Below the pieces are notes generated by a model. It was not told the origin of the DNA. It saw only the letters and a program-made list of their open reading frames with translations, and did not search any database. A program made the translations under genes and the position numbers. Source: Microcystis aeruginosa NIES-843 (GTDB taxonomy: Bacteria; Cyanobacteriota; Cyanobacteriia; Cyanobacteriales; Microcystaceae). Taken from it: a DNA stretch of 32,000 nt. Below, piece by piece: positions 2,818 through 25,842 of this stretch (its first letter is position 1; the number at the start of each line of letters is the position of its first letter). The stretch is taken from the NCBI RefSeq assembly GCF_000010625.1, contig NC_010296.1, positions 3,750,001-3,782,000 on the forward strand, read 5' to 3'.

Positions 2818-2820
2818 TTT

Positions 2821-2870
2821 AATTTCGGGGGACTATATTATCTATTCGCCAGAAGACCTGTGATTTATGC
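2821..2870 (-). promoter_or_regulatory. putative promoter/operator of the vWA-FHA gene (copy A of a duplicated upstream block)
   Basis: The 20-bp block agaagacctgtgatttatgc (2851-2870) and tatattat (2834-2841) recur at the same distance from the ATG of the 5157-5381 ORF. On the sense strand an ATAATATA -10-like box lies ~20 nt upstream of the ATG. Confidence 0.35.
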
Positions 2871-2922
2871 CAAAGCTGTCACAAAAGTACACAAAAAAAG
2901 GCATTGCTGAATAAACAGTCAA

Positions 2923-7922: not shown

Positions 7923-8151
7923 TGTTAAATTTACGGGTTTTTAGCAGAAAAAGTGCTAGTAAATCGGAAAAAAAGGGAAGATGAGGAGAGAAGCTTTTCC
8001 TTAAATTTTACTCTACAGAATTGATCAGCGTGATTATTAAACCTCTGGCATAATTAATTTTTGAGGGTTCAAAAACGGCAAAAATAAGGATTAAATTGCC
8101 TAAAATCCGTAAATAGACTATTTAATTGATTATTGTTCATTCTTAATTCTC

Positions 8152-10669: not shown

Positions 10670-11944
10670 CTAGAATGCTTTTCTATATCTCACCGAAAAG
10701 TAAACCCCTTGTTCTTGCAGTGAATTTCCGGAATTATCGACAGAAACTAACGGAATCCCGTAATCTAAACGAACAGTTAAACCATTAGCCACTAACCAGC
10801 GTAAACCTAATCCTATCCCTCCTAAAGTAGCAGGATCGGGATCAGGAAGTAAATTATTCCATCCAGTCCCCCCCTCAACAAATGAGGTAATTTGCAAGAC
10901 TTCGGGATCTTGAGTGAGGGGAATTCTTAACTCTAATGATCCTAATAAGGCATTATCGGTAACAATTTCGTTTTTTGCATAGCCTCGCACTGTATCAATT
11001 CCTCCTAAGCTGAATTGCTCAATAATCGGTAAGGGATCACCAGCAATTTGAGCGTAAAAACGACCTAATAACAGCCAATTATTACTAAAACGATTAACAA
11101 ACTGAAATTGACCTAACCAGCTAAAAAATTCCTGATTTGGCTCAATATTAACAACTGTGCTATCAAACGCATTGATACCGAAGTTCAATTGAGAACGAGC
11201 AGCAAAAACTTGGTTAGGCGTACGATTGAGCCATTCTTGGGAAAATCTGAGGACGGTTAGGTTGGTTTTCCCATCAATACAGGGTTGAGAGAAACAAAAT
11301 GACACCCCTTCAAGGGAACTACGGTTATTGCGAATATCTAAGTTTAACCCTAATGTCCATTCGGTTTGTAGAGTCCGATAAATCGGTTGACGATATTCAA
11401 CTCCTAATGTCTCTGTTTGGTTACGAATATCGAAGATATTGAATAAGGTTTCGGTAATTTTGCTGTCTGTATTCCAGTAATGTAGTCCAATTCGTCCATC
11501 CATCGGATTAATTGGCAAGTTGTAGTGAAGATTGTATAAATTTAAACCTTCGGTAATAGAATATTCCCCTGAAAATTTATCACCCCATCCTAAGACATTA
11601 CCATGAGATAAGGCGATAGTTCCTTCATAAGAGCCGATATTTGGGGGACGATAGTTATCGGTGCTAACTTCTACACTTAAAGCTTTTGCTTCTTCTAAAT
11701 TAACCAATAAGACACTTTTTCCGTCTGTGCTTCCGGGTGTTAATTCAGCTTGAATCGTTTTAATTAAGGGATCTAATTGTAATAAAGCGAGTCCGTTTTG
11801 TAAGGTTTGCTGATTTAAAGGGGTTCGGGTGACGTTTTCTAAACGAGAGCGAATATAATAATCTGGTTCTTCCGAACTTACACTGTAGAAAAGTCCCCAA
11901 GCTCCCTCTCTGTCCAGCAATGTTCTAAAGTTGATAAATATCAA
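10670..11944 (-). CDS. ShlB/FhaC/HecB-family TpsB outer-membrane transporter, C-terminal fragment (gene split by a MITE)
   Basis: After the junk N-terminus the ORF reads DYYIRSRLENVTRTPLNQQTLQNGLALLQLDPLI (POTRA2), then beta-barrel sequence ending YFSVRYRKAF with a terminal aromatic residue. The first ~26 codons derive from the inserted MITE. Confidence 0.85.
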   Translation of the reverse strand: MIFINFRTLLDREGAWGLFYSVSSEEPDYYIRSRLENVTRTPLNQQTLQNGLALLQLDPLIKTIQAELTPGSTDGKSVLLVNLEEAKALSVEVSTDNYRPPNIGSYEGTIALSHGNVLGWGDKFSGEYSITEGLNLYNLHYNLPINPMDGRIGLHYWNTDSKITETLFNIFDIRNQTETLGVEYRQPIYRTLQTEWTLGLNLDIRNNRSSLEGVSFCFSQPCIDGKTNLTVLRFSQEWLNRTPNQVFAARSQLNFGINAFDSTVVNIEPNQEFFSWLGQFQFVNRFSNNWLLLGRFYAQIAGDPLPIIEQFSLGGIDTVRGYAKNEIVTDNALLGSLELRIPLTQDPEVLQITSFVEGGTGWNNLLPDPDPATLGGIGLGLRWLVANGLTVRLDYGIPLVSVDNSGNSLQEQGVYFSVRYRKAF

Positions 11945-12027
11945 TCTAACAAAAACTCAAAGCCCTATTGTACAAGCTTTACAAGCATAAGTTGTTGATA
12001 GTTTTGCATGACAGGTTCGGTAGAGCC
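11865..12027. mobile_element. 163-bp MITE inserted in tpsB, with 8-bp target-site duplication
   Basis: The imperfect TIRs are ggttcttccgaacttacactg (11865 onward) and, from 12027 read inward, ggctctaccgaacctgtcatg. Identical AATAATCT lies at 11857-11864 and 12028-12035. Removing the MITE plus one repeat (171 bp, 57 codons) restores GLKRLKDYYIRSRLEN in frame. Confidence 0.85.
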
Positions 12028-12472
12028 AATAATCTTTGAGTCTCTTAAGTCCTTGTATCTCAATTCGTTCAATTTCTCCCTCTACAACTTGAATTTTTAC
12101 CGTTCCCTCAGTAATCTCTTGGTTATTTGGTAAGAATGCCCCAGAAGTAATATAGCCTCTGCTAACATAAAGTTCTGTAATGGTGCTTCGCAGACAAATA
12201 AGTTTTTCAATAGTAATCTTTTGATTTTCTAAAGGTTGAGTTAAAGATCGAATTTCTGCTTTAAAAATACTATTGCCCAAAACCTCAATTTTCTTGACAA
12301 AAAACCCCTCACTTTCAGGATCAGAGGGGCAGTTTTTTGTCTCTTGAAAACGGTCTCCATCAGCCAGCGATTGCGCTTGTCCCGTAGAGCTATCTAAGCC
12401 GATACAACCTGCGATTAAACTCACACAAAATAATCTTTTGAATACCTTAAACATATGATCTTTATTAATCAA
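11957..12472 (-). CDS. TpsB transporter, N-terminal fragment (signal peptide plus POTRA1), truncated by the MITE
   Basis: The likely true start is the ATG at 12454 (MFKVFKRLFCVSLIAGC). FFVKKIEVLGNSIF...VKIQVVEGEIERIEIQGLKRLK is a POTRA module. The reading frame then runs into the MITE and stops. Confidence 0.8.
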   Translation of the reverse strand: MINKDHMFKVFKRLFCVSLIAGCIGLDSSTGQAQSLADGDRFQETKNCPSDPESEGFFVKKIEVLGNSIFKAEIRSLTQPLENQKITIEKLICLRSTITELYVSRGYITSGAFLPNNQEITEGTVKIQVVEGEIERIEIQGLKRLKDYWLYRTCHAKLSTTYACKACTIGL

Positions 12473-13106
12473 TCAGTCCTTCTTCTCTAGCGCGTTTTAA
12501 AGTTAAAATTCGCAAGTTTTTACTATCTTCTGGATAAATTTCTAAGACATCTTGTAATTTTGTCCAATAGTGACGCACCGTTCTTTCTGCAATGTTCATT
12601 TTTATGGCGATCGCTTTATCCTGTAAACCTTCTTCAAACGCAAATCTAAGCAATTCTAACCATTCAGATTTTACCTCTATTCCTGCTTTTAAATCTTTGG
12701 TATGGGTTAATCCCCGCATCACCCAATTAACGCGGTTAATCATTTCTGACTGAGGTAAGGTTTTATCCGCAACTGCAAAACCTCCGTGATGATTATCAAT
12801 ATTTGGCTTAAGACGCATTAGGGCTTTGATATAACTACTTTGCACGATAATATTTAGGTTCGGATAGTCTTTTAGTATTTTTTTAAGAAAATTTAACCCA
12901 TTTTCGACTTCAGCGACTGTTCCCTCGGTTTGGGGGAGGGAAAGATCCATCACCAGAATATCAGGTTGATGACTGCTTAGGAGGTGTTGGGCTTCTTGGA
13001 GATGAGAAGCGGTTAAAAAGTCGGCTTCGGGATGCTCTGCTTGAATAGCTTTGAGCGTTCCTTCAAGAAGGAGGGGATGATCGTCAATTATCAGGATAAG
13101 AGACAT
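12465..13106 (-). CDS. response regulator, REC domain plus LuxR/NarL-type HTH
   Basis: 213-aa ORF. REC motifs are LIIDDHPLL and DILVMDLSLP. The C-terminal KAIAIKMNIAERTVRHYWTKLQDVL is a LuxR-type HTH. Its stop lies 10 nt upstream of the likely tpsB ATG. Confidence 0.9.
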   Translation of the reverse strand: MSLILIIDDHPLLLEGTLKAIQAEHPEADFLTASHLQEAQHLLSSHQPDILVMDLSLPQTEGTVAEVENGLNFLKKILKDYPNLNIIVQSSYIKALMRLKPNIDNHHGGFAVADKTLPQSEMINRVNWVMRGLTHTKDLKAGIEVKSEWLELLRFAFEEGLQDKAIAIKMNIAERTVRHYWTKLQDVLEIYPEDSKNLRILTLKRAREEGLID

Positions 13107-13266
13107 GATTTTAGCGATTAAGGGGGATAAATTTTGAGATTAGACATGATCAATTACAGGCTTAAGGTTAAGGAACAGGTCTATAAGAAGACGTAGCCAT
13201 TCATTATAGACTAAAGAGGAGCAAATCGCACTATCCAAGAAAAATTTTTCATAATTCGCCAACTTT

Positions 13267-13397
13267 GGCTCTTATCGACTTGGTGTGATAATCAGTGCTT
13301 ATCATTCGTAGGAGTCTTGCTAGGCAAGGCTTTGAAGACTATATTTCTGGAAAATTATCCCTATTCTTCTTACTCCCACACAGAAACGAGAAGAGCC
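13267..13397. mobile_element. 131-bp MITE, copy A (ISL3-like termini GGCTCTT.TCG)
   Basis: It starts ggctcttatcgac and ends cgagaagagcc, which are inverted. It is ~90 percent similar by eye to 25911-26044. The AACTTT hexamer abuts the left end and recurs 1 nt beyond the right end, giving a 7 of 8 match if the boundaries shift by one. Confidence 0.7.
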
Positions 13398-13644
13398 CAA
13401 CTTTTTGAAGTGCATTTTCATAAACTGACAAACTTAAGCGAAATTTACCCACTGTTTGCAAGTTATCTAATTGTTCTTTTAAGTTGGGAATTAAGCGATT
13501 TTGTTTTGCCCAAATTAAAAGTACGACTGTTCCGAGTGTGGGTAAATTCAGAGGAAATCGTTGATGAACTAATTCTAATTTTCTAATGCTACTTAAAGCA
13601 ATTAAAACTAATGCGTTGGTTACAGCTTTCATATCACTGATCAA
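13339..13644 (-). pseudogene. DUF3368 (PIN-like toxin) family remnant, internally deleted and hit by MITE copy A at its 3' end
   Basis: ALVLIALSSIRKLELV jumps straight to GTVVLLIWAKQNRLIPNLKEQLDNLQTVGKFRLS, so the N- and C-terminal DUF3368 blocks are present without the middle. The last ~19 codons are MITE sequence. It lies immediately downstream of a UPF0175-type antitoxin remnant. Confidence 0.45.
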
Positions 13645-13897
13645 GTTCTTGTAGAGTATTTAAGTCTGCTTCTAATTCTTCTAAATCGTAGGTACATTAA
13701 ATATTTTCTTGGGCTAATAATTCATGAAAATCCCATTTACTTAATTGGGTTAGTTCACGGGCTTTACCTAATGAGAGAATTTGTTTTTGATAGAGTCTGA
13801 TGGCCAATTCAATACGAACACGGTTGGCGCATTCATCAGGTGGGATGCGTAGATTATCTGCGACTTCATCAGGAATTTATAAGAGTATTTTAGTCAT
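13634..13897 (-). pseudogene. UPF0175-family antitoxin pseudogene (two in-frame TAA stops)
   Basis: My translation is MTKILL*IPDEVADNLRIPPDECANRVRIELAIRLYQKQILSLGKARELTQLSKWDFHELLAQENI*CTYDLEELEADLNTLQELDQ*. The stops lie at 13877-13879 and 13697-13699. The pattern matches cyanobacterial UPF0175 antitoxins paired with DUF3368. Confidence 0.55.
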
Positions 13898-13993
13898 GAT
13901 TTTTATTTAAGAGGGTAGATTAATTATAATCCAAGGAAAATCATCTCTTTAATTTACTTTACAAAATAGGGCGGTGTTTTGCCATAAAATCAA

Positions 13994-14020
13994 GGTGCAT
14001 TACACTTTCATTAATGCACC
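13994..14020 (-). terminator. possible hairpin terminator downstream of the Asn-rich protein gene
   Basis: A 9-bp stem (ggtgcatta / taatgcacc) with a 9-nt loop lies 47 nt after the stop at 14067. On the minus strand it is followed by ttgatttta. Confidence 0.35.
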
Positions 14021-14066
14021 CTACGAGAATGGCGATCGCATTGTAATTAAATTGATCAACACGCAA

Positions 14067-14426
14067 TTACCAAGGGGTTGTATAAGTGCGAGAGGAACTA
14101 CTGCTATTAGAGTTATAAGAATTACTATAAGAACAGTTTCCTGTCTCACAATTACCTGATTGATGGTTATTAGAATGGGAATTACGATTTCCTGATTGAT
14201 GGGTTATGGTGTTGTTATCATAATTTCTGATGGTGCGGTTATAACCTTCTTTGGTTTGATTCCAACCCCCACTGTTATAGCCATTATTGTAGCGTTGACC
14301 GTAATTATTCCCCCATTGATTGTCATTAACATCCCAGTTTTGAGCAGTTGACACAGTGGGGTAAGAAGCAATCATTAAAGAAATAGCGGTCATTGCCAGT
14401 TTTTTGTAGGTATTAGAAGTAAGCAT
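14067..14426 (-). CDS. small secreted Asn/Ser/Gly-rich low-complexity protein
   Basis: 119-aa ORF with a signal peptide (AMTAISLMIASYPTVSTAQ). The mature part is N/G/S/Y-rich, with a repeated HQSGN motif and a C-terminal Ser run. I recognise no homologue. Confidence 0.55.
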   Translation of the reverse strand: MLTSNTYKKLAMTAISLMIASYPTVSTAQNWDVNDNQWGNNYGQRYNNGYNSGGWNQTKEGYNRTIRNYDNNTITHQSGNRNSHSNNHQSGNCETGNCSYSNSYNSNSSSSSRTYTTPW

Positions 14427-14505
14427 TTTTTGTTTTTCCTCGTTGTTTATTTTGCTTTATATGTCTAGATTAATTCGTTAAATCGTGAAAGCATAGGTTG
14501 GTTTA

Positions 14506-14554
14506 TGCCAACTTCATTGCCGTTTTCAGACAAGTAAATGGCACAAAAGTGCAA
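14506..14554 (-). promoter_or_regulatory. 49-bp conserved upstream element, copy 1
   Basis: tgccaacttcattgccgttttcagacaagtaaatggcacaaaagtgcaa is identical to 15235-15283. It lies exactly 79 nt upstream of the start codon at 14426. Confidence 0.5.
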
Positions 14555-14572
14555 GCTTATACTTAAAGAAAA

Positions 14573-14600
14573 AAAGAAAGAAAATAGAGTTTCTTTCTTT
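14573..14600 (-). terminator. AT-rich hairpin terminator after the RTX-like gene
   Basis: An 11-bp stem (aaagaaagaaa / tttctttcttt) with a 6-nt loop. On the minus strand it is followed by a T-run (uuuucuuu). It sits ~45 nt downstream of the stop at 14646. Confidence 0.4.
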
Positions 14601-14645
14601 CAATATTTAAACGCTTGACCTTCAAGATAACGAGAAAAGTCAGAT

Positions 14646-15155
14646 TTAGACAAACTGACAATAGTAGCTCGTCAGCGCAAAGTTACCTGTGTAGTCTTGA
14701 AGAACCCCTAAAATATCTCCACCTGAGGTTCTGATAAGCAGATCTGATGTTGAATTTCCACTAAAATTATTACTAGATCCTGTTCTCTCAAAAGTGTAGG
14801 AAAAACCTCGTGTGAGTTGAATATAGTCGTTAGCAGAATTATAATCGGTAATAGTTGCATAACCATTACCTAAATAACCGCGTCCCCCACGATCACCAAG
14901 CACAAAAGTATCAGAGCCACTACCCCCCGTTAAGGTGTCATATTCTCCTGAATTAAAAGCATAGGAACCAAAACCATCAAGATAGTCGTTTCCACTCCAA
15001 CCAAAGAGGCGATCATTACCAGTGCCTCCATATAAACGATCATTATTTGTATTACCTAGAAGTGTATCATTGCCTCCATATCCACAAGCAGTGAGACTCT
15101 CAGATCCCATATAGTTGTAGTAATCTGAAGCACTGGTTCCATAGTAAGTAGCCAT
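14646..15155 (-). CDS. small calcium-binding RTX-repeat (hemolysin-type) protein
   Basis: 169-aa ORF with tandem nonapeptide-like repeats GYGGNDTLL, GNTNNDRLY, GGTGNDRLF, GWSGNDYLD and GGSGSDTFV. There is no N-terminal Sec signal. Confidence 0.75.
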   Translation of the reverse strand: MATYYGTSASDYYNYMGSESLTACGYGGNDTLLGNTNNDRLYGGTGNDRLFGWSGNDYLDGFGSYAFNSGEYDTLTGGSGSDTFVLGDRGGRGYLGNGYATITDYNSANDYIQLTRGFSYTFERTGSSNNFSGNSTSDLLIRTSGGDILGVLQDYTGNFALTSYYCQFV

Positions 15156-15234
15156 TTGTTTTTGCTCCGTTTTTTGAAATTTGTTTGATGTCTCTAAGTT
15201 AACCCCTTAAACCCTGAAAACCTAGGTCATTTCC

Positions 15235-15283
15235 TGCCAACTTCATTGCCGTTTTCAGACAAGTAAATGGCACAAAAGTGCAA
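15235..15283 (-). promoter_or_regulatory. 49-bp conserved upstream element, copy 2 (in the divergent region with the CHASE2 kinase gene)
   Basis: Identical to 14506-14554. It lies exactly 79 nt upstream of the start codon at 15155 and overlaps or precedes the 5' end of the kinase ORF on the other strand. Confidence 0.5.
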
Positions 15284-17299
15284 AGCCCATTGCAGAAAAG
15301 TGCAAAGCAAGGAGGAGTCAAATTTTTGTATGATAGAACCAACCTAAAAGCCCTAACCCCAAACAAACCCATGTGGCATCGCTGGTGGAAAAAGCCAATC
15401 CTTAAACAATTCAATCAATGGGGAGGACTGTTCCCCGGTATTACCATCATTGCCGTTATAATCACTGCGCGAGGATTAGGATTACCCGAAGAATCAGAAT
15501 GGACAACGTTTGACACCTTTTTGCGGCTTCGTCCCCTTGAAGCGATAGATGAGAGAATCGTAATTATCGGGATTAATGAAGCAGATATTAGACAAATCAA
15601 ACAATATCCTATCCCTGATGCTGAAATTACCAATTTAATCCAAATCTTACAACAATACAACCCCAGAGCCATCGGTTTAGACATTGTTCGGGATCTCCCC
15701 GTTGAACCAGGACATGATAAATTCGTTCAAATTTTGCAAAATAGCCCTAATATAATCGGTATTCAACAAGTTTTAGGCTTAGGCATTGCGCCCCCTCCGG
15801 CTTTACCTTCTGAGCAAATTGGTTTTTCCGATGGTATTCCCGATGATGATGGACGAATGCGGCGCAGTTTATTGGGAACTTACGTCGAAAATAACCCAGA
15901 ATATCAATTTTCCTTGGCCTTACGCCTCGCAGAAGCCTATTTAACCCCCAAAGGCTTTCCCTTAGACAATGGCATCAAAGATCCCCATGCTATGCGTTTT
16001 GGTACAGTAGAATTACCCCGTTTTTCGTCCTATACAGGGGGTTATATTAATACTAAAGCAGGGGGCGTACAGATTCTGGTCAATTATCGCAATAATATCG
16101 ATAGTTTTCGCACTTTTTCCCTAAGTGATGTCAAATCCAGCAAAATTAAGCCCGAATGGATACAAAATCGCCTTGTTTTAATTGGCATGACGACACCCAG
16201 TGCGCCTGATCTTGCTCATACAACGGCGATCGCTTCTTCTCACGTCAAAGGCGAAATTTATGGGGTAGAATTTCAAGCTCATGCCATTAGTCAAATTATT
16301 AGTGCAGTCTTGGATAATCGCCCTTTAATCAAAAGTTTAGCAGAAGGATGGGAATATCTCTGGATTATTGTTTGGGGGTTAGGAGGAATTTATCTGAGTC
16401 AATTAACCGTTTCCCCTTTAAAGAATTTATTAGCGGTTATTCTTTCGAGTTTTATGTTAATTATCATCTGTTATCTTTTCCTCTGGTGGGGATGGTGGTT
16501 GCCTATGGTTCCCGCTGTGTTAGCTTTGGCATTTAATGGGGTTATTTTAACCAGTTTTTATCTTTCTCATCAAAATTTATTGTCAAAATTAGCAGAACGT
16601 CAACAAACTATCGAAGAAACCTTTACAGTGATTCACAATGGACCCTTACAAACCTTAACCATCTTTTTAAAAAAAATGCGAGAGAAGGGAGATCAAGAAA
16701 GTATTACTTATTTAGAAAACTTAAATCAAGAAATTAGAGAAATTGGGGAATATCTTAAACAAGATTCCTTAAAACCTGCAAAAGAGACTTCAGATCGTTT
16801 ACGCTTAGGTAGTGGTTTGATGTTGGATTTAAAACAACCCCTTGACGATCTATTTTACCAAGTTTATAATAGTACCTTAAATCGGGATTTACCCTATTTT
16901 TCTACTTTAAAGGTTAAAAGTCGCTCTTTTGCGCCGATTTCTCTTCCCTTATCTTTAGACAAAAAACGGGAACTTTGCCAGTTTCTTGAAGAAGCATTAT
17001 GTAATATTGGAAAACACGCTCAAGGGGTCATCCGTATTAATGCGGTTGGCATTAATACGGATGGATGGTATATATTAAGTATTAAAGATAATGGACAAGG
17101 AAAAGACTTAATTGCCGAAAATTTAGGCACAAAACAGGCGCAAGCACTGGCTAAAAAACTTGGAGGACAGTTCAGACGAGAAAAACTGCACCCAAAAGGG
17201 GTATTATGCGAATTACGTTGGCAAATTGTTACCCAAAAAACATCTAAGTTATCGCAATGGCTTAAATTAATTCACTCTAAACTCAATCTTAAAAATTAA
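15278..17299 (+). CDS. CHASE2 domain sensor histidine kinase (HisKA_3-like H box)
   Basis: 673-aa ORF. The likelier starts are the TTG at 15326 (10 nt after AAGGAGG) or the ATG at 15371 (MWHRWWKK). It has an N-terminal TM, then a CHASE2-like region (IVIIGINEADI..YPIPD, GLDIVRDLP), then a cluster of TM helices (WEYLWIIVWGLGG, WWGWWLPMVPAVLALAF). The H box is IHNGPLQTL, the N box LEEALCNIGKHA, and the G box KDNGQG. Confidence 0.85.
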   Translation: MQSPLQKSAKQGGVKFLYDRTNLKALTPNKPMWHRWWKKPILKQFNQWGGLFPGITIIAVIITARGLGLPEESEWTTFDTFLRLRPLEAIDERIVIIGINEADIRQIKQYPIPDAEITNLIQILQQYNPRAIGLDIVRDLPVEPGHDKFVQILQNSPNIIGIQQVLGLGIAPPPALPSEQIGFSDGIPDDDGRMRRSLLGTYVENNPEYQFSLALRLAEAYLTPKGFPLDNGIKDPHAMRFGTVELPRFSSYTGGYINTKAGGVQILVNYRNNIDSFRTFSLSDVKSSKIKPEWIQNRLVLIGMTTPSAPDLAHTTAIASSHVKGEIYGVEFQAHAISQIISAVLDNRPLIKSLAEGWEYLWIIVWGLGGIYLSQLTVSPLKNLLAVILSSFMLIIICYLFLWWGWWLPMVPAVLALAFNGVILTSFYLSHQNLLSKLAERQQTIEETFTVIHNGPLQTLTIFLKKMREKGDQESITYLENLNQEIREIGEYLKQDSLKPAKETSDRLRLGSGLMLDLKQPLDDLFYQVYNSTLNRDLPYFSTLKVKSRSFAPISLPLSLDKKRELCQFLEEALCNIGKHAQGVIRINAVGINTDGWYILSIKDNGQGKDLIAENLGTKQAQALAKKLGGQFRREKLHPKGVLCELRWQIVTQKTSKLSQWLKLIHSKLNLKN

Positions 17300-17351
17300 T
17301 CTTTTTTATCTGTATAGCTCCAAGAATTGCTATATATGGGTTTCGAGATTA

Positions 17352-18173
17352 GTGCTATTTCTCATAAAACCCTACTCCCGCCTACTTTTCAAGCTTTTTG
17401 TCCTGTACTTAGTGAGAAATGCTATGATTAAAACTTACAAAAAATCCATTACTCTTTCTTTACTCACGTTAGGATTAACCCTTTTTCCTTTAATAGCTGA
17501 TGCAGGATATTCTCCCCCACCTCAACAAGAAAGAGCAGGAGATCATTCTAAATCAATGGGAGTAAGGACAGGCTCTAATTTAACCGAAGAGGATTACCCT
17601 TTAACGATTATTGCACCGCAAGTTTATGTCGGTCAAACGGCATCTGTTACCCCTTCTTTTGTCTGGATAGTGGGTAATCAAAATACGGATTATGAGGTAG
17701 ATTTTCGCTTATTTGAATTTAATGAGCAAGGAAAAATTCAACAAAGGGGAGAAACGTTACGATTTCAACAAAAAGGAGGAATTCATAACTTTTCTTTTCC
17801 CAGTAATCAAACCCCTTTAGAAGTGGGTAAAAAGTATCTTTGGCAAGTCGCTATTCGTCAAAGTCCTGACGTTTGGATGATTCAACGAGCAGAATTTAGA
17901 GTGGTTGAAATGCCCATTTTTTTAAGTCAACAAGTGGCTAATTCACTTCAAAAAACTGAACAAGCAGAACGCTATGCCGAAAATGGGTTATGGTATGATG
18001 CTTTAATGACGAGCTTATCTTCAACCCATCAAGGAGAATTAAACCCTCAAGTTGCTAATTTTATTAAATCTCTCGTAGAATCTGAACATTTAGAGCCATC
18101 TGAAGGGGTTGATGCCAAAATTATTACTCGACGAAATAACACTTTAATAAAACTGGCAGAGTATTACAAATAG
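17352..18173 (+). CDS. DUF928 domain-containing secreted protein
   Basis: The likely start is MIKTYKKSITLSLLTLGLTLFPLIADA (a signal peptide, about 24 codons into the ORF). Blocks PLTIIAPQ..VGQTASVTPSFVW, LEVGKKYLWQV and ERYAENGLWYDAL match my memory of DUF928 conserved blocks. Confidence 0.75.
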   Translation: MLFLIKPYSRLLFKLFVLYLVRNAMIKTYKKSITLSLLTLGLTLFPLIADAGYSPPPQQERAGDHSKSMGVRTGSNLTEEDYPLTIIAPQVYVGQTASVTPSFVWIVGNQNTDYEVDFRLFEFNEQGKIQQRGETLRFQQKGGIHNFSFPSNQTPLEVGKKYLWQVAIRQSPDVWMIQRAEFRVVEMPIFLSQQVANSLQKTEQAERYAENGLWYDALMTSLSSTHQGELNPQVANFIKSLVESEHLEPSEGVDAKIITRRNNTLIKLAEYYK

Positions 18174-18245
18174 GCTTAATTTTTGTGGAAATCCTATGAT
18201 TAAGGCTATAATTAAACTAAGAAATCAACATTTTCAGCTAAAGCC

Positions 18246-18893
18246 ATGCAATTAGCCTTAGAACAAATTATCGTCAATCCCGGTCAACAGTTACTTTTAA
18301 AAGATATTAACTGGCAAAAATTTGAGACAATATTATCAGAATTAGGAGAAAGTCGTGCTTCTCGGTTATCCTACAGTAACGGAATATTAGAAATTATGGT
18401 ACCTTTACCCGAACATGAAAAAGATAAAGAAATCATTAGTTATATGGTTCAGTTTTTGTTAGAAGTACTCAATATTGATTTTGAACCGTTAGGATCAACA
18501 ACATTTAAAAACGAGCGGATGAATCAAGCGGTTGAACCTGATGCCTGTTTTTATATTAAAAACTATCAAGCCGTTATTGGCAAAAATAGACTTAATTTAG
18601 AAAGTGATCCCCCCCCTGATTTAGTCCTAGAAATTGATATTACTTCCCGTACCTATTTAGATAATTATCGACAGTTAGGTGTTCCCGAACTGTGGCGTTA
18701 TACTCAAAGTGGCCTACAGATTAATTTATTACAAGAAGGAGAATATATTGAGTCTTTAAGCAGTCCCAATTTTCCTCAGATACCGATTATTGAATTAATT
18801 AATCAATTTGTTAAACAAAGTCAACAACTGGGGAGAAGTAAAGCCATCAGAAACTTTAAAAATTGGCTGACGGAAAATATAGATAATAGTTGA
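18246..18893 (+). CDS. Uma2 (DUF820) family endonuclease
   Basis: 215-aa ORF with ILEIMVPLPEHE, EPDACFYI, PPDLVLEIDITS and GVPELWRY, the typical Uma2 PD-(D/E)xK-like blocks. Confidence 0.8.
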   Translation: MQLALEQIIVNPGQQLLLKDINWQKFETILSELGESRASRLSYSNGILEIMVPLPEHEKDKEIISYMVQFLLEVLNIDFEPLGSTTFKNERMNQAVEPDACFYIKNYQAVIGKNRLNLESDPPPDLVLEIDITSRTYLDNYRQLGVPELWRYTQSGLQINLLQEGEYIESLSSPNFPQIPIIELINQFVKQSQQLGRSKAIRNFKNWLTENIDNS

Positions 18894-18899
18894 AAAATT

Positions 18900-21716
18900 C
18901 TAACATTTTCGACTAAGATAAAGTCGTCCGTCGAGAGTTGTATAAACCCCTTGCGGTTCAATGATATGATCACCCTTTTTCCAAGGTTGAGCGGGTGTTT
19001 CAGGAATAGGTTGAATGATTTCAGGGAAATAAGAGGGAGTATTCATATCTCCTGGCCGATTTTGGACACCTCCTGAGCCTTTTATGATAAAACTACCCCC
19101 GCGGTTCTGATTAGGTGAAATACAGCTATTAGCTAAGAGTTTTTCAGGGTTAATCAAGAATTCTGGCAACTGAACGATACTATTTTGAATAAAGGTCAAG
19201 TCTGGAATAATAATTGCACCTGAGACTGCACCACTGGCGTTAATATCGACTCTATCGTTACCATCTAGGGTATTAGGATCACTTTCACTCGAAATCCGTT
19301 GATAACCATTACCAAAAAATACAGGCGTATTAAATTGAATGTTGCCACCTCGTCCATCACGAGAAAAAGCTAAAATATCGCTATCATTGAATAATAGGAT
19401 AGAATTAGCTGTTACCGTAATATTTCCGCCACCTCCTGCTCCATTATTTACATTCGTCCGAATATCGCTATCTCCTTGTAATCTGATGTTATCTGCGGTG
19501 AGGGTAATTTCTCCCCCTGCGCCTTGATTGGCATTTGCGGTAATATCACTATTAGTGGCACTGAATAAACCCGTCAGATTAATATTAATATTACCTGCGT
19601 TGCCTTCTCCTTCTGAACGAACGCTAATTTCTGATTGATTTTGTAGATTAAGAGAATTGGCGTTGATTTCGATCAATCCACCCCTAGCTAATGAATTTCT
19701 AGTTACTGCGGTAGATATTTGACTATTTTGATTCATTAATAGCTCATTCCCCACATTCAAGCGAATATTACCTGCATTGCCATCAGCACTTGTACTAGCA
19801 GTAATTCGAGCATTTCGTTCTAAGGATAAGGTATCGCTAATATTTAGCACAGCGTTTCCCGCATTTTTGGGACTAATGGTAGATGTAGAAATCACCGCGC
19901 CATCTGTGAGGGTTAAGCGTCTTGTTTCTATCAAAAGGTTTCCCCCTTCTCCTTGAGATTGAAAATCAAACCCAATGATCCCTGTTGAGGTAAAAATCCC
20001 ACTAGGAAATCTCAGATCAGAGGATATTCCTGTAATGTAAAGGCTATCGCTCGCTCTGAGCAGAATATCTCCCCCTTTTCCTTGATCAAACGTGGCCGCA
20101 GAAATTTGCGCCCCGTTACTTATTCTTAAAGTTTTTGTGTTAATCTCAAGATTTCCTGCATTCCCTCTTCCGAAAGTATCTGTGTAGATAGCACTATCAA
20201 AATCATCTATATTAATGCTTTCTGAAGCATTAATGATTAAATTTCCCCCTTGACCAGAACTGGTTGCATTGAGAATTTCTCCCCCTTCATTAATATTTAA
20301 AATTTGTGTTTCAATGATTAAGTTTCCTGCTGAACCAGTTTGATCTTGACTTGCACCCAAAGAACCCGCTGCAATAAAACCATCATCAATCACATTAACG
20401 CCATTTTGGGCATTAATAATTAAATTTCCCCCCTTTCCTTGTCCAAGGGTAGTGGTTTCAATAAGAGATGCTCCCTGTACCGTTAAATTATTGGTTTTAA
20501 TAATGACACTCCCACTATCACCAAGAGTATCAATAAACGTTCCAGTACCAATAATCGAACCATTGCTCAAACGAATATCCTGCGCTTGAATTGAAATATC
20601 TCCCCCATCTTGGTCAGAAAGTGTTACTGATAAAATGGCAGATTCATTGATTAAAGCGACCTTTTGAGCGGTTAACTTGATCTCGCCCCCTCCTAACCCG
20701 CTACTATTTAGCAAGGCCAGTTGAGATAAGGTAATTTGACCTTGGGATTGACTATCTATCCCTTCATATCCTAGCCTCCATCCCTTAGGAACAGGAGTTA
20801 AGCTGACATTACCCATATTTCTGACGCTTCCGACTTCTATTCTTCCCCCCAAAGCGGTTAAACTTCCACTATTTAAAGTCACATCCCCCCCGACTAGGGC
20901 AATGGTTTGGTTAGGAAAAACCTGTAAACCGACAGGGCGAGTTAAAATATTCTCAATTAGGGTTTTTGTCCCTTCTAAAACTTCATTCGGACCTCCTGTC
21001 ACTTTAGGGATACTTTGAAGAACACCTGTAAGGGATTGTTCGGGGCCTTGTAGGGTAATCGGTTTAGGAGAAGATGAGGTGAAACCTAAACCAATAGGGG
21101 TACTAATGGTTAAAATAGGGGAAGATTGGGTTAAATTTGCACTAAAAACCGTCCCATCTGCAAATTTTATCTGATTAGCGGTTGTGGCGATAAATGACCC
21201 CCCTAAGTTTAACCTCGCATCGGGTCCAAATAAAATCCCATTCGGGTTGAGAAAAAATAAGCTTGCTGTTCCTAAGTCTTGGGGTTGAATTAAACTTGAT
21301 AAGTTAGTATTCGGTAAAAGGGACAAACTCCGTAGATTAATCAGTAAATTATTAATCGTTTCTGCTTTAATAAGCGATAAATTGCCTAAGATATCCGAAG
21401 GATTATTCCCTGTTACCCGAATTAAAATATTATTCACGCCATTGGGATTGGTTAAAATAATCGTCTGCCCTTCACGAATGTTAAAATCCTGAAAACTTTG
21501 AAACAGATTTTCACCTCTTCTTGCACCACCTTGAATCAGTTGTAGCAGTTGATTAAAAGTGATAACGAAAGCACTTTCGATTCCTAAGCTAGTATCTGGA
21601 ATAATTTGAGCAATAGCTGGACTTTTAACTGAAAATAGACTCAAGGAGACTAATAAGCTGACAAGGTTACGAAATTTTAACATTTTTATCCTGAACATTG
21701 TTACATCACTCCTCAA
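18900..21716 (-). CDS. TpsA-type exoprotein: filamentous hemagglutinin N-terminal (TPS) domain plus beta-helix repeats
   Basis: The likely start is the ATG at 21683 (MLKFRNLVSLLVSLSLFSVKSPAIAQ). TPS blocks are GGARRGENLFQSFQDFNI, NILIRVTG and LFFLNPNGILFG. About 600 aa of degenerate G/N/I-rich repeats follow (GGNLIINA, GNAGNLEINT, GNAGNININL, GAGGEITLTA). The C-terminal ~95 aa are bracketed by Cys residues, and I recognise no toxin domain. Confidence 0.9.
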   Translation of the reverse strand: MRSDVTMFRIKMLKFRNLVSLLVSLSLFSVKSPAIAQIIPDTSLGIESAFVITFNQLLQLIQGGARRGENLFQSFQDFNIREGQTIILTNPNGVNNILIRVTGNNPSDILGNLSLIKAETINNLLINLRSLSLLPNTNLSSLIQPQDLGTASLFFLNPNGILFGPDARLNLGGSFIATTANQIKFADGTVFSANLTQSSPILTISTPIGLGFTSSSPKPITLQGPEQSLTGVLQSIPKVTGGPNEVLEGTKTLIENILTRPVGLQVFPNQTIALVGGDVTLNSGSLTALGGRIEVGSVRNMGNVSLTPVPKGWRLGYEGIDSQSQGQITLSQLALLNSSGLGGGEIKLTAQKVALINESAILSVTLSDQDGGDISIQAQDIRLSNGSIIGTGTFIDTLGDSGSVIIKTNNLTVQGASLIETTTLGQGKGGNLIINAQNGVNVIDDGFIAAGSLGASQDQTGSAGNLIIETQILNINEGGEILNATSSGQGGNLIINASESINIDDFDSAIYTDTFGRGNAGNLEINTKTLRISNGAQISAATFDQGKGGDILLRASDSLYITGISSDLRFPSGIFTSTGIIGFDFQSQGEGGNLLIETRRLTLTDGAVISTSTISPKNAGNAVLNISDTLSLERNARITASTSADGNAGNIRLNVGNELLMNQNSQISTAVTRNSLARGGLIEINANSLNLQNQSEISVRSEGEGNAGNININLTGLFSATNSDITANANQGAGGEITLTADNIRLQGDSDIRTNVNNGAGGGGNITVTANSILLFNDSDILAFSRDGRGGNIQFNTPVFFGNGYQRISSESDPNTLDGNDRVDINASGAVSGAIIIPDLTFIQNSIVQLPEFLINPEKLLANSCISPNQNRGGSFIIKGSGGVQNRPGDMNTPSYFPEIIQPIPETPAQPWKKGDHIIEPQGVYTTLDGRLYLSRKC

Positions 21717-21766
21717 CTTTTTATAGTAGGATTACAGCATTGATTCAATGATCGACTGAGTAAACC

Positions 21767-23296
21767 GTGTTTCATCGCTTTTTCTCCTATTCGCGTCTTT
21801 TGATCTGGCTATTTGTCGCCAGCTTAGTCTTTTTTTCAGGATTAGGCAAAATAACACCCTCTCACTTTATCTTATTTCATGCTCCTTTGATGGCTCAATC
21901 GATGAGTCCTCGTCAATGGGTACAAGAGGGAATTGACGCTTATCAAGCAGGAAACTATCAAGAAGCGGTAAAAATCTGGAAAAAAGCTTTATCTGCTTCC
22001 TCAGAACCCCAAGAAAAGCAAATTATCCTTGAAAACTTAGCAACAGCTTATCAAAAATTAAATCAAAATGAGCAAGTCTTTGAAACCTTAGAAAAGTTAG
22101 AAAAATATGCCATTGAAACAGGAAATAAAGGGAAATTAAGTCAATTATTAACCCAAAAAGCGCAAATTTATCTTAATATTGGTCAACCACAAACAGCGAT
22201 CGCTCTTTTATGTGCTTCAACCGATGAAAAAACCTGTCAACCTAATACCGCCTTAGCTATCAGTCGTCAGATAGAGGATACAAGCATAGAACGTTCAGCA
22301 TTAGGAATTTTAGCAGAAGCTTACCGTTTTAGCGGAAAATATGACCAAAGTATTCAAACCCTAGAAACCGCTCTATCTTTACCCTCTACAGAAGCTCAAA
22401 CATCCTTAAAACAAAGCTTAGGCAATTCTTATACAGCTAGAGGTCAATTATCCCAATTACGGGCAAAATCTGCTGAAAAACAAGATCATAACCGCTCCAA
22501 TACTTTTCAAAAACAAGCGATCTCCGACTATCAACAAGCTACCAAAAATTTCCATGCTAACTTAAATGGATCAGAAGATCCTTTAACAAAACTAGAGAAT
22601 TTATTAAATTTAATTCGTTTATCCTATTATTCTCAAAATTTTCAGATAATTTCTCCCCAACAACGGCAAAATGATTTACAACAGGCGTTAATCTTGCTCC
22701 CTATGGTCCCTCAAAATGTAACAACGGTTTACGCTAGTATTGACTTAGCGAGTCTACCCGCCTTTTCTTTAGCCTTAAGTACCCCTTTAACCCAATGTCC
22801 GACGCAATGGCAACTATCTGACTATCAAAGATTATCCATTCTCGATAATGCTTTAACAATTGCTAAAAATCTTAATAATCCTCGTGTAGAGTCTTTTGCA
22901 TTAGGCGCAATCGGTCATTTTTATGAATGTCTTGGCAGAACAAAAGAAGCCTTAACCCTAACACAGAAAGCGATTTTAGTGGCTAATCAAGATTTAAACA
23001 CAAAAGATGGCTTATATCTTTTGGAATGGCAAAAAGGGCGTATTTTTCAAGCAAAAGGACAATTCAACCTCGCCGTTAACGCCTATCAAAACGCCTATAA
23101 TACTCTTGAAAATATCCGTAGTGACTTATTAACGACTGAAAAAGACGTACAATTGGACTTTCGTGATAGTATTGAACCTATTTATCGTCAACTTGCTCAA
23201 TTAAAGCTACAATTAGCTGATTCTCAAAGTTTATCATCTATACAACAAAAACAAGAATTAAAAGAAGTCCTGGCTCTTCGTTACCCTTTATGCTAA
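21767..23296 (+). CDS. TPR-CHAT protein, N-terminal fragment (signal anchor plus TPR repeats), truncated by IS insertion at 23272
   Basis: It has a GTG start and a hydrophobic N-terminus LLIWLFVASLVFFSGLG. TPR-like repeats include AYQAGNYQEAVKIWKKAL, LAEAYRFSGKYDQSIQTLETAL and GRIFQAKGQFNLAVNAYQNAY. The last 8 codons (ALRYPLC*) are IS sequence. Confidence 0.85.
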   Translation: MFHRFFSYSRLLIWLFVASLVFFSGLGKITPSHFILFHAPLMAQSMSPRQWVQEGIDAYQAGNYQEAVKIWKKALSASSEPQEKQIILENLATAYQKLNQNEQVFETLEKLEKYAIETGNKGKLSQLLTQKAQIYLNIGQPQTAIALLCASTDEKTCQPNTALAISRQIEDTSIERSALGILAEAYRFSGKYDQSIQTLETALSLPSTEAQTSLKQSLGNSYTARGQLSQLRAKSAEKQDHNRSNTFQKQAISDYQQATKNFHANLNGSEDPLTKLENLLNLIRLSYYSQNFQIISPQQRQNDLQQALILLPMVPQNVTTVYASIDLASLPAFSLALSTPLTQCPTQWQLSDYQRLSILDNALTIAKNLNNPRVESFALGAIGHFYECLGRTKEALTLTQKAILVANQDLNTKDGLYLLEWQKGRIFQAKGQFNLAVNAYQNAYNTLENIRSDLLTTEKDVQLDFRDSIEPIYRQLAQLKLQLADSQSLSSIQQKQELKEVLALRYPLC

Positions 23297-24693
23297 ATCA
23301 ACATACAAGATGCCAAGATAACATACTTCTAACCCAAAAATTCCGAAAGTTTCTAAAGCCATAGCCTCTCCGTTTTATTAGTTTAAGTTTATTGTTGATT
23401 CCCTCGACCACCCCATTCGTTGTCCTTCGCTCGAAATAACTAATTATTTCTCCAAACCAGTTTCGGATTGTTTGACAACTCTTGGTAAAAACACTGGAGG
23501 ATTTTGCCAACCATTCCGAGATGGATAGCATTCCCTCTGTCGGATTCTCTGAGGTTTCATAAATCTTTCTAAATTCTTCCTTTAATTCCTGCATCTTTTT
23601 CAAATTTGGGAATTTTTCTTTGATAGCTTCTAGTTTAATTTTTTGGGGTTCCGTTAAATCTTCTTCATTTTTTAACAGGCTATATTTACTTCGCTTTAAA
23701 ACTTCTAGCTTCGCTTCTTTTTCCGCTTTCTGTTTTTTATTTTTCTGCGCTTCTACGGCTCTTTTTTCTGCTCTTCTCTGTTCGTCTAACTCTTGATTAA
23801 TTTGTTTCATTACATGGAATCTATCGGCGACTACTTCGGCCGATGGCATCAATTCTTTCACCAAATTTTTATAAGGCAACCAAAGGTCTATGCTCACTTC
23901 TTCAATTTGCTCTAACACCTCTTTTCCCCAGCCCGTAAGCGTTTCTCTCAACTCTTCTTGTGTTCGCTTCTCTAGAATAGCTATTAGTTTTCCCGTATCT
24001 AAATTTACTAAAACCGCACAGTAATTTTTTTGTCCTTTGACTAGAGCGATTTCATCAATTCCTAGTCTTTTTAATTCCGATAGGTCTGGCTCTGTAATTT
24101 CTTCGGCGATGTCCTCTATCATTCTTTGAATCTCTTCTTCCGTTACGTCATTTATTCGACTAACATTTAAAATATCTCCTTCTTTTAATTGTTCGAGTAT
24201 ATTTGCGGCTAGTCTTTTCGTATAGGTTCGTTTCTTGGCGACAAAATCTAACTCTTCGCTAAAGGGTCTCTGACAATTATCGCACTTAAATTGACGACGA
24301 TTAATTTGTAGGTATACTGGTTGACCTGAGATTGGTAAATCTTTGACTAAATGTCGATGATTTTGGTGGAGTTTATCGCTCTCTAACCCACAACGAGGAC
24401 AGGTTGCTTTTTGATTTTTCGATTCGATTCGGCAAACTATACCGATATTTTCTAGGTGTAGATAGCCTTGAATACAGGTTCCTTTTAGGTTCAAAAATTT
24501 GTCAAGTATCATAAGTAAAATAATCTCGTTTTTGGCTATTATATCAAATCTTAACTCAATTGTCTATCTTTTGGTATTAACCTGTTTGTGCCTTAAGTCC
24601 TTCCCTGTATGGATTTCAGCTACTTTTGAGCGTAGGCGCTCTCATCGAATTTTATTTTAAGTTAATTATTTGCATAACAATTCCCGAAGAGCC
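23272..24693 (-). mobile_element. ISL3-family insertion sequence (1422 bp) with 8-bp target-site duplication
   Basis: The terminal inverted repeats are ggctcttcgttaccctttatgc (23272 onward) and, from 24693 read inward, ggctcttcgggaattgttatgc. GAAGTCCT lies at 23264-23271 and 24694-24701. The element contains a single transposase ORF. Confidence 0.9.
23298..24512 (-). CDS. ISL3-family transposase
   Basis: 404-aa ORF. It has an N-terminal zinc-finger region (CPRCG...CDNC), DEIALVKGQKNY, ADRFHVMK, and the C-terminal TNGVVEGINNKLKLIKRRGYGFRNFRNF typical of ISL3 transposases. Confidence 0.9.
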   Translation of the reverse strand: MILDKFLNLKGTCIQGYLHLENIGIVCRIESKNQKATCPRCGLESDKLHQNHRHLVKDLPISGQPVYLQINRRQFKCDNCQRPFSEELDFVAKKRTYTKRLAANILEQLKEGDILNVSRINDVTEEEIQRMIEDIAEEITEPDLSELKRLGIDEIALVKGQKNYCAVLVNLDTGKLIAILEKRTQEELRETLTGWGKEVLEQIEEVSIDLWLPYKNLVKELMPSAEVVADRFHVMKQINQELDEQRRAEKRAVEAQKNKKQKAEKEAKLEVLKRSKYSLLKNEEDLTEPQKIKLEAIKEKFPNLKKMQELKEEFRKIYETSENPTEGMLSISEWLAKSSSVFTKSCQTIRNWFGEIISYFERRTTNGVVEGINNKLKLIKRRGYGFRNFRNFWVRSMLSWHLVC

Positions 24694-25842
24694 GAAGTCC
24701 TCAAGATTATTGATCATCTAAGACTCGCAGAATTGCAAAATTATCTGGGAAATGACTGTTTTTTGCGGATTGATGCCCCTGTTTCTCAGCCTATATCTGC
24801 TTTTCCTCAGACGGCAATTATTAATTATTTAATGTTTCAAGAGAAAACAGCAATCATTATAACTTTACCCGATGAAAGTATAAAAATTCACTGGATTAAT
24901 CAGAATAAAGCCAATATTATCGAAAATATTGCTCAATTTCGTCAAAATCTCTTAGATGGGTTTTTAACTCTAGGTGATTATGACACAAGCTTATCTGAAA
25001 CCCTCTATAGTCAGATAATTCGTCCTTTTGAGACTGATTTACAGGAATACGACATAAAAAACTTAGTTTTTATCCAAGATAGTCCTTTTCGCCCCATCCC
25101 TATGGCTGCTTTACATGATGGTAAACAATTTCTGATCGAAAAATATGCTGTCTCTACTACCCCTAGTTTATCCTTAACCTTTCTGCAAAAAAGAACCTTA
25201 TCTGACAATAAAACGTTAATTTTAGGAGTCACCGAAGAAAGTCAAATTGATGGTCAAATTTTTCCTTCTTTAGATAATATTCCCCTTGAAATTGCCACCA
25301 TTTCCCAACAATTTCCTAATCATCAACTGCTAGTTAATCAACAATTTAACCCCCAAACCCTCACCCAAACATTAGATAATGCTGACTACTCCATTATTCA
25401 TATTGCCACCCATGCTCAATTTGGGACAATTCCAGATGACACCTTTCTGGTGGCGGGAAATAATGATAAAATAGCCCTTAAAAGTCTTGAAAATACCTTA
25501 AGACTGCTTGAATCAGGCTCTAACTCTGTTGAACTTCTCACCTTAACCGCCTGTGAAACCGCAGAAGGAGACGAACGATCTGCGCTAGGATTAGCAGGAG
25601 TAGCAATACAAGCAGGGGTTCAAAGTGCGATTGCGTCTTTATGGCCAGTTTCTGATCAATCTACGTTACAATTAATATTGGCTTTTTATGACAATTTAAT
25701 TAATTCAGGGGTTAATAAAGCAGAAGCCTTAAGAGAGGCTCAAATCCAATTAATTCAAGCTCAAAGTAATCCAGATATTAATAATCAGTATAGTCATCCC
25801 GTTTATTGGTCTTCTTTTATCTTAATTGGAAATTGGTTATAA
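24670..25842 (+). CDS. TPR-CHAT protein, C-terminal fragment carrying the CHAT caspase-like domain
   Basis: After 8 IS-derived codons the frame continues EVLKIIDHLRLAELQNYLG. The caspase-like dyad contexts are YSIIHIATHAQFG (His) and ELLTLTACETAEG (Cys). The ending HPVYWSSFILIGNW is typical of CHAT domains. Confidence 0.9.
   Translation: MHNNSRRAEVLKIIDHLRLAELQNYLGNDCFLRIDAPVSQPISAFPQTAIINYLMFQEKTAIIITLPDESIKIHWINQNKANIIENIAQFRQNLLDGFLTLGDYDTSLSETLYSQIIRPFETDLQEYDIKNLVFIQDSPFRPIPMAALHDGKQFLIEKYAVSTTPSLSLTFLQKRTLSDNKTLILGVTEESQIDGQIFPSLDNIPLEIATISQQFPNHQLLVNQQFNPQTLTQTLDNADYSIIHIATHAQFGTIPDDTFLVAGNNDKIALKSLENTLRLLESGSNSVELLTLTACETAEGDERSALGLAGVAIQAGVQSAIASLWPVSDQSTLQLILAFYDNLINSGVNKAEALREAQIQLIQAQSNPDINNQYSHPVYWSSFILIGNWL

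Follow-up and report, generated by a model that had tools for sequence, protein, structure and literature searches.

The 32,000-nucleotide stretch of Microcystis aeruginosa NIES-843 analysed here (NC_010296.1, positions 3,750,001 to 3,782,000; hereafter the window) carries a block of genes encoding a NarL/LuxR-type response regulator, a CHASE2 sensor histidine kinase, an exported DUF928 protein, a TPR-CHAT protease and both members of a two-partner secretion (TPS) pair, the exoprotein TpsA and its transporter TpsB. At a probability of about 0.6, we read this block as the Microcystis version of a modular envelope system that is conserved in cyanobacteria and joins a sensory core to a protease and cargo part, and whose mechanism we infer. 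The sensory core would consist of the regulator, the CHASE2 kinase and exported DUF928, and the second part of an exported TPR-CHAT protease together with secreted cargo, usually at least one TpsA exported by TpsB. The block has a GC content of 34-42% versus 43-53% in its flanks. All domain assignments of a first-pass annotation made from the sequence alone (ShlB/POTRA, Response_reg, CHASE2, DUF928, TPS, TPR, ISL3 transposase and CHAT) were reproduced by Pfam at the same places (Table 1), while two of its start positions have moved: the CHASE2 open reading frame (ORF) is open from 15278 with a likely ATG at 15371, which gives 642 aa and is the start called in related contigs, and DUF928 likely begins at 17424 and not at 17352.

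A DUF928 alignment, searched against a single genome for each species, yielded 80 loci, almost all of them cyanobacterial. Among these the order response regulator, CHASE2 kinase, DUF928, TPR-CHAT is repeated in many genera of cyanobacteria; TPS genes, and at times TpsB genes, lie next to it. In raw counts over these best-matching loci, a CHASE2 kinase gene lies directly upstream of DUF928 on the same strand in 45 of 63 loci (25 of 38 genus-level groups), a TPR-CHAT gene lies directly downstream in 39 of 55 (22 of 32 genus-level groups), and a regulator gene lies upstream in 39 of 58. The gap between DUF928 and CHAT has a median of 23 nt and is often 4-25 nt (4 nt in Microcoleus), and a TPS gene falls within the fetched flanks in 20 of 31 genus-level groups. 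Where at least 9 kb was available on both sides (26 loci), the CHASE2 kinase was present in 23, the response regulator in 21, CHAT in 21, TPS in 11 and TpsB in 6. Independent contigs with precomputed Pfam labels have the same gene order, and a search anchored on TpsB instead found, in Synechocystis LKSZ1 and Aphanothece, tpsA and tpsB genes next to a TPR-CHAT gene that precedes them in divergent orientation. The grouping of DUF928, CHASE2, CHAT and TPS genes is not chance. The proposal of the first-pass annotation that these genes form one functional unit thus gains from the shared gene order, from the short DUF928-CHAT gaps, from an 8-nt overlap between the end of the regulator gene and the start of tpsB in Microcystis, and from the gene fusions described next.

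Three Pseudanabaena-type loci carry, beside DUF928, TPS::CHAT fusion proteins of ~1,080 aa with an N-terminal TPS and a C-terminal CHAT domain, in which a short GGLP-containing stretch (SGGLP in L078) is followed by a Ser/Thr-rich linker and then by CHAT. Such fusions are classical evidence that the TPS and CHAT functions belong together, and they place the protease on the export route. In one of the three (L070) the pair of DUF928 and TPS::CHAT genes stands alone among housekeeping genes. The contig of this locus is titled Rhizobium sp. Q54 MAG, and its DUF928 and TPS::CHAT are nearly identical to those of the Pseudanabaena contig L078; it is probably mis-binned and not a proteobacterial occurrence. 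The Microcoleus loci follow a further variant (L048, L054, L060, L063, L066, L068, L077, L081, L086), in which the response regulator, CHASE2 kinase, DUF928 and TPR-CHAT genes are followed by an RTX or RTX-subtilase gene and then by a second TPR-CHAT gene; the cargo may differ between lineages.

Evaluating the sensory core further, we found that kinase and regulator belong to matching classes, because the kinase has HisKA_3-type motifs and structural matches and the regulator resembles DevR throughout its length. The regulator combines a receiver domain with a LuxR/GerE helix-turn-helix; its GerE match reaches 19.1 bits, under the Pfam cut-off of 23.5, and its alignment with DevR, a member of the NarL family, covers the full length at E 2.5e-8. 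An identical regulator protein is present in many Microcystis contigs. Pfam made no HisKA_3 call in the kinase core at E 0.01. A profile of the C-termini of 14 orthologues has IHNGPLQ as an invariant H-box and EEALCNxGKHA as its N-box. In the PDB it significantly matches (best E 4.9e-6) the ATP-binding domains of VraS and DevS/DosT, kinases of the HisKA_3 class, and one further chain whose deposited name says no more than GAF domain-containing protein; the match to DesK is weak (E 0.14-0.57). The LuxR-type regulator of the first-pass annotation and its pairing with a HisKA_3-like kinase are both borne out by these comparisons. Phosphotransfer between the two is a candidate pairing that rests on adjacency in 39/58 loci.

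The DUF928 protein exceeds its Pfam gathering cut-off of 26 with 99.8 bits, and its predicted layout runs from a signal peptide and a conserved N-terminal tail through a beta-sandwich to a helical bundle (AlphaFold2 model; predicted local distance difference test score, pLDDT, 78). G46 and R48 are invariant in the DUF928 alignment and sit beside a low-confidence loop of the model. Against the PDB, Foldseek matched the model only to generic Ig-like, macroglobulin and carbohydrate-binding beta-sandwiches, with query-normalised template modelling (TM) scores of at most 0.36, and in NCBIfam none of DUF928, the CHASE2 kinase, TpsA and CHAT has a specific family. A linear motif common to the DUF928 N-terminal tail and the TpsA C-terminus was considered and rejected (hhalign probability 0.06%). 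The single open-access mention of DUF928 that our literature searches found, made in passing, concerns a CHASE2, DUF928 and WD40 combination in Nostoc punctiforme (PMC5587647). Because DUF928 is the common element of the modular loci, its distribution suggests that it is the connector of the unit.

A strongly hydrophobic N-terminal segment is found in 90% of the full-length TPR-CHAT orthologues of DUF928 loci versus 0% of the regulators, so the TPR-CHAT protein is probably exported, in which case the protease would share the periplasm with DUF928 and the CHASE2 domain. This export segment also bears on whether the block could be an anti-phage or abortive-infection module built around TPR-CHAT, as in the type III-E CRISPR Craspase. 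The TPR-CHAT architecture is shared with that system, PADLOC gave a weak BovA match to CHAT, and the neighbouring Uma2 gene is a defence candidate (PDC-S17); against this, the CHAT protein carries an export segment, the block encodes no nucleic-acid sensor, and DUF928, CHASE2, the regulator and TpsA match no PADLOC system. PADLOC as a whole called no defence system, giving weak matches to the regulator receiver (SduA, PDC-M60B/C), a generic TPR match and none for DUF928, CHASE2 or TpsA, and we regard a defence role as extremely improbable.

The cargo side of the system is where we found a feature that had gone unannotated. TpsA comprises a signal peptide, a TPS domain with LTNPNG and FLNPNGILFG in its sequence, beta-helix repeats and a conserved C-terminal module of about 110 residues that no Pfam family covers. 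The same module ends 24 of 25 long, C-terminally complete TPS proteins of the DUF928-anchored loci, and eight further TPS proteins, checked by eye, end in it as well. Its family consensus is LANSCI...GxFxITGxGGLPxRPGD...YPTGxV...PW..GDPIVEPQGVYRLxNGxLVLSREC, with the Arg near-invariant. An exhaustive profile search at E <=1e-30, on which our counts rest (a word-index protein search with the TpsA C-terminus gave mostly fragments), recovered the module from at least 801 representative clusters; of the 150 best matches, nearly all have it at their very C-terminal end or close to it. Among full-length module proteins, six of seven have an N-terminal TPS domain, which is the sole Pfam match in five of these. 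One representative with the module (P0152, 1,696 aa) has an internal LAGLIDADG_3 match, of homing endonuclease or intein-like type. The earlier description of TpsA as lacking a recognisable toxin C-terminus stands, in that neither Pfam nor NCBIfam finds a toxin family there, and was incomplete, in that the protein ends in this conserved module.

These properties of the C-terminus speak to a further explanation, contact-dependent inhibition of the CdiA/CdiB type or other toxin delivery against neighbouring cells. The TpsA/TpsB architecture, the multiple tpsA paralogues within single loci of relatives and the repeated loss in Microcystis would all suit such a role. The variable toxin C-terminus and immunity gene of a CdiBAI system are missing here, however: the TpsA C-terminus is not polymorphic but conserved throughout at least 801 clusters, Pfam and NCBIfam find no toxin domain, and no small immunity-like gene follows tpsA. 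Toxin delivery is accordingly very unlikely. The position of the module also raises the possibility that CHAT works in the manner of a sortase or of PorU, as a C-terminal signal peptidase or transpeptidase that removes the TpsA module and so fixes or releases the exoprotein at the surface, with the two-component system only tuning expression. PorU and GPI8 are clan CD enzymes that perform C-terminal sorting elsewhere, the window protease is an exported enzyme of the same clan, and the TPS::CHAT fusions put CHAT on the secretion route. Such a sorting role would leave unexplained both the tight links of DUF928 to CHAT and to CHASE2 and the Microcoleus loci without TPS genes, and we think it quite improbable.

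Returning to the envelope system that we favour, DUF928, the CHASE2 domain and TPR-CHAT would all face the periplasm, where DUF928 might act as a hub coupling protease activity to kinase signalling, by analogy with CpxP/CpxA/DegP, while the kinase-regulator pair would set the transcription of adjacent secreted-protein genes. CHAT would cleave exposed linear motifs after a conserved Arg. Candidate sites are the DUF928 tail motif G46-x-R48 and, within the C-terminal module of TpsA, the GGLPxRPGD motif with its near-invariant Arg; the cut could serve to mature the exoprotein, to release it or to retain it. The literature searched yielded one characterised cyanobacterial CHAT protease, HetF, and it cuts after Arg (PMC9457339). 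The chain that the first-pass annotation drew from a sensed signal through transcription to secretion and processing is, like this working, a proposal. We hold as doubtful a more specific form of this working, a caspase-like loop in which TPR-CHAT would cleave DUF928 and/or the TpsA module after the invariant Arg and CHASE2 would read the product or the freed DUF928, giving feedback on transcription from secretion status or a surface event. If true, it would provide the first defined CHASE2 ligand and make caspase-fold proteolysis a bacterial envelope signal.

Several observations weigh against a single coupled system. TpsB lies within the fetched flanks in 9 of 31 genus-level groups, a figure that is too low, since TPS genes, at 3-6 kb, displace TpsB beyond the flank. 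The 80 loci are the best DUF928 matches and not a random sample; they were annotated with home-built profiles made from the window proteins, and many are short or come from metagenome bins. The generic beta-sandwich predicted for DUF928 gives no functional clue, AlphaFold2 gave no usable fold for the TpsA C-terminal module (mean pLDDT 45), and a crude k-mer search for a regulator site in 15 CHAT/TPS divergent intergenic regions found nothing above shuffled controls. The links of substrate, ligand and regulation in the proposed working are ones that we infer. Finally, the sensory trio of regulator, CHASE2 kinase and DUF928 occurs without CHAT or TPS in L001, L040 and L064, CHAT-TpsA-TpsB occurs without the sensory part in L097, DUF928 and TPS::CHAT occur without CHASE2 in L070, and the Microcoleus loci have no TPS gene within 10 kb.

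The unit is thus modular, its sensory part and its secretion part each occurring alone. This separate occurrence, together with the empty search for a shared promoter motif in the CHAT/TPS intergenic regions, is what would be seen if the neighbours were two independent systems, one a CHASE2 two-component system assisted by DUF928 and with unrelated targets, the other a secretion system of CHAT, TpsA and TpsB, with no regulatory or proteolytic cross-talk between them. We consider such independence plausible but unlikely, given that CHAT is so often the immediate and closely spaced neighbour of DUF928 (39/55 loci, often 4-25 nt away), that DUF928 stays beside CHAT where CHASE2 is absent (L070), and that the regulator gene and tpsB of Microcystis overlap as members of one operon.

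Within the window, the system is broken. The tpsB gene retains its domains and is split by a 163-bp miniature inverted-repeat transposable element (MITE) bounded by a perfect 8-bp target duplication (AGATTATT, at 12028-12035 and 11857-11864), and an ISL3 element, again with a perfect 8-bp duplication (GAAGTCCT, at 23264-23271 and 24694-24701), splits the TPR from the CHAT coding sequence. Removal in silico of each element with one duplication copy restores an open 543-aa TpsB ORF and an open 881-aa TPR-CHAT ORF, the latter with the catalytic His/Cys dyad HIATHA...LTACET, which agrees with the clean mobile-element insertions reported by the first-pass annotation. Uninterrupted alleles for comparison exist for both genes: the restored TpsB shares 97% identity, along its whole length, with an intact 537-aa protein from another sample (P0032), and the restored protease has the length of the intact TPR-CHAT gene of L088 (881 aa). 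Although tpsA and tpsB adjoin in relatives (L016, L031, L038, L097-L100), in the window they are ~7 kb apart with other genes between them. Because tpsB and the CHAT gene are split, the secretion and processing half is non-functional in the window and the unit cannot work as a whole, as the first reading had supposed; the regulator, kinase, DUF928 and TpsA genes are intact.

This decay is not confined to the two genes of one strain, as had first been described. Eight other Microcystis contigs sharing the regulator (L088-L095) carry the MITE together with its flanking sequence, without any difference in seven of them and at 99.6% identity in the remaining one, so the tpsB lesion is not peculiar to NIES-843, and other independent lesions accompany it. 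In L088 the CHAT gene is intact while the CHASE2 and TPS genes are split, in L092 the TPS and CHAT genes are deleted and ureE adjoins Uma2, and in L008 and L010 larger deletions leave a tpsB remnant ~0.2-0.4 kb from a truncated DUF928, with IS-like (insertion sequence-like) sequence between them in L008. The DUF928 gene of the window is 90% identical to its M. ichthyoblabe counterpart. A second copy of the MITE family occurs in L088 as two pieces (7990-8074, 9225-9328) around a 297-aa gene with transposase-type helix-turn-helix domains, and the family is therefore multi-copy in Microcystis. The lesion pattern fits the costly or counter-selected function suggested at first and fits simple relaxed selection too, relaxed and negative selection being indistinguishable with the present data.

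Table 1. Coordinates of the envelope block and associated features (window positions, except where a locus is named).
Feature	Position	Strand	Evidence or remark
tpsB 3' part, ShlB/Omp85 beta-barrel	10670-11856	-	ShlB E 1.8e-28, Omp85 E 8.7e-19; barrel ORF given as 10670-11944
MITE in tpsB, 163 bp	11865-12027	-	ISL3-like termini, ends GGCTCTACCGAAC / GGTTCTTCCGAAC
tpsB 5' part, signal peptide and POTRA_2	12028-12472	-	POTRA_2 E 3.4e-20; ORF given as 11957-12472
NarL/LuxR-type response regulator, intact, 213 aa	12465-13106	-	Response_reg E 8e-12, weak GerE
DUF3368 (PIN-like toxin) ORF	13339-13644	-	Between regulator and small genes
Small N/S/G-rich protein, 119 aa, signal peptide	14067-14426	-	Kept at same position in L089-L095
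Upstream region of 119-aa gene	14427-14554	-	Copy at 15156-15283
Small RTX-repeat protein, 169 aa, no N-terminal signal	14646-15155	-	HemolysinCabind E 5.6e-9
Upstream region of RTX gene	15156-15283	-	Copy of 14427-14554; in divergent intergenic region shared with CHASE2 gene
CHASE2 sensor histidine kinase, HisKA_3 class, intact, 642 aa	15371-17299	+	CHASE2 E 2.2e-62
DUF928 exported protein (predicted), intact, 249 aa	17424-18173	+	DUF928 (PF06051) E 2.1e-28
Uma2-family endonuclease-like gene	18246-18893	+	Uma2 E 1.3e-15; PADLOC PDC-S17 E 5e-40
TpsA exoprotein, intact, ~930 aa	18900-21716	-	TPS (PF05860) E 2.7e-42; TIGR01901
TpsA C-terminal module	18903-19232	-	LANSCI...GxGG[LV]..RPGD...EPQGVY...SRKC; a Cys at each edge
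TPR-CHAT 5' part, N-terminal hydrophobic export segment and TPR repeats	21767-23271	+	TPR families; ORF given as 21767-23296
ISL3-family insertion sequence, 1,422 bp	23272-24693	-	Inverted terminal repeats GGCTCTTCG
ISL3 transposase, intact, 404 aa	23298-24512	-	DDE_Tnp_ISL3 E 2e-68
TPR-CHAT 3' part, CHAT caspase-like protease domain, His/Cys dyad	24694-25842	+	CHAT (PF12770) E 2.8e-61; ORF from 24670
TPS::CHAT fusions	L070 6737-9985; L078 1216-4455; L076 4182-7006		L076 copy is two overlapping ORFs

Two small genes between the regulator and the kinase had both been taken for exported-looking proteins, which holds for the 119-aa protein, with its N-terminal signal peptide, and not for the 169-aa RTX-repeat protein, which has none. 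The former is Microcystis-specific, with no family match in Pfam or NCBIfam, while RTX proteins recur in related loci, and the two are possible accessory or target genes of the unit. The regions upstream of them are duplicates of ~130 nt, in which a 48-nt core (14507-14554) is identical in both copies and lies 80-128 nt ahead of each ATG, and, in the divergent stretch between the RTX and CHASE2 genes, AAAAGTGCAAAGC occurs twice (15274, 15296). This duplicated region may be a shared promoter or regulator site; k-mers common to the window's own promoters revealed nothing beyond it.

The first-pass annotation had placed every component of the block in the envelope, outside the cell or in signalling, and two genes are neither, namely Uma2 and a DUF3368 remnant. 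Uma2 is probably a passenger outside the unit; we considered it as a member on the strength of its presence in 11 of 26 loci, but these were mostly Microcoleus and had it ~2-5 kb off, and it was treated as a passenger. In the Microcoleus loci, Uma2 genes lie a few kb upstream of the regulator. The DUF3368 ORF looks like a toxin-antitoxin remnant, because L088 has a UPF0175/DUF3368 pair at the matching position. Outside the block, a full-length Rfam match to the IsrR antisense RNA (174 bits, 30389-30575, plus strand) lies opposite ORF 29604-30986, presumably isiA, and two adjoining large ORFs of ~725-730 aa on the minus strand (643-5115), the second with a Dynamin_N GTPase domain, may be a bacterial dynamin-like pair; neither is related to the envelope block.

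Our literature searches found no paper combining CHAT, CHASE2 and TPS and no description of the cluster as a whole, in line with the earlier statement that such a unit lacks an experimental description. New here are the TpsA family with its conserved, previously unannotated C-terminal module, the spread of the tpsB MITE over related Microcystis contigs, and the intact allele. CHASE2, DUF928 and exported CHAT proteases are widespread families without a known role in this setting, and the gene order from regulator through CHASE2 and DUF928 to CHAT, the TPS::CHAT fusions and the TpsA module of at least 801 clusters give them concrete, testable partners. If the links hold, they would describe a cyanobacterial surface-protein system under caspase-like proteolysis, of relevance to adhesion, colony or mat formation and motility. 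The value lies in the family and not in the window locus, since the window copy is a broken, decaying relic. For Microcystis, the repeated independent lesions suggest a surface function that is dispensable or disfavoured in bloom populations, and the alleles could serve as population markers.

Among known systems, several share single elements with the one proposed here. PorU of type IX secretion and GPI8 likewise pair a clan CD cysteine peptidase with cargo bearing a conserved C-terminal module, though by another secretion route, and transpeptidation would be no more than a hypothetical activity of the window protease. CdiA/CdiB/CdiI also exports a large beta-helical exoprotein by two-partner secretion, whereas here the C-terminus is conserved, with neither a polymorphic toxin tip nor an immunity gene. 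Csx29 of the Craspase has the TPR-CHAT architecture and is a partner-regulated caspase-like protease, but is cytoplasmic, RNA-guided and CRISPR-encoded, while the window protein is predicted to be exported and is linked to secretion and two-component genes. HetF of Anabaena PCC 7120 is, like the window protein, a cyanobacterial CHAT cysteine protease, with a specific substrate, PatU3, cut after Arg (PMC9457339); unlike it, HetF is cytoplasmic, acts on a cell-division regulator and lacks both the TPR-plus-export architecture and this neighbourhood, and the NCBIfam HetF model scores the window CHAT protein at 17.7 bits against a cut-off of 1200. The CpxP-CpxA-CpxR-DegP system places a small periplasmic accessory protein between sensor kinase and protease, which is the logic proposed for DUF928 from gene order only, CpxP having no sequence or fold relation to DUF928. 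In the Bordetella system of FhaB/FhaC with BvgAS, SphB1, CtpA and DegP, as in the arrangement proposed here, a TpsA protein passes through a POTRA-bearing Omp85 channel, control is by a two-component system with a NarL-family regulator, and the TpsA C-terminal region is subject to dedicated proteolysis. The cyanobacterial version differs in its CHASE2 sensor, where Bordetella has a Venus-flytrap hybrid kinase, and in its clan CD TPR-CHAT protease, where Bordetella has a subtilisin autotransporter; it adds DUF928, clusters all of its genes, and has a short C-terminal module (~110 aa) that is conserved family-wide.

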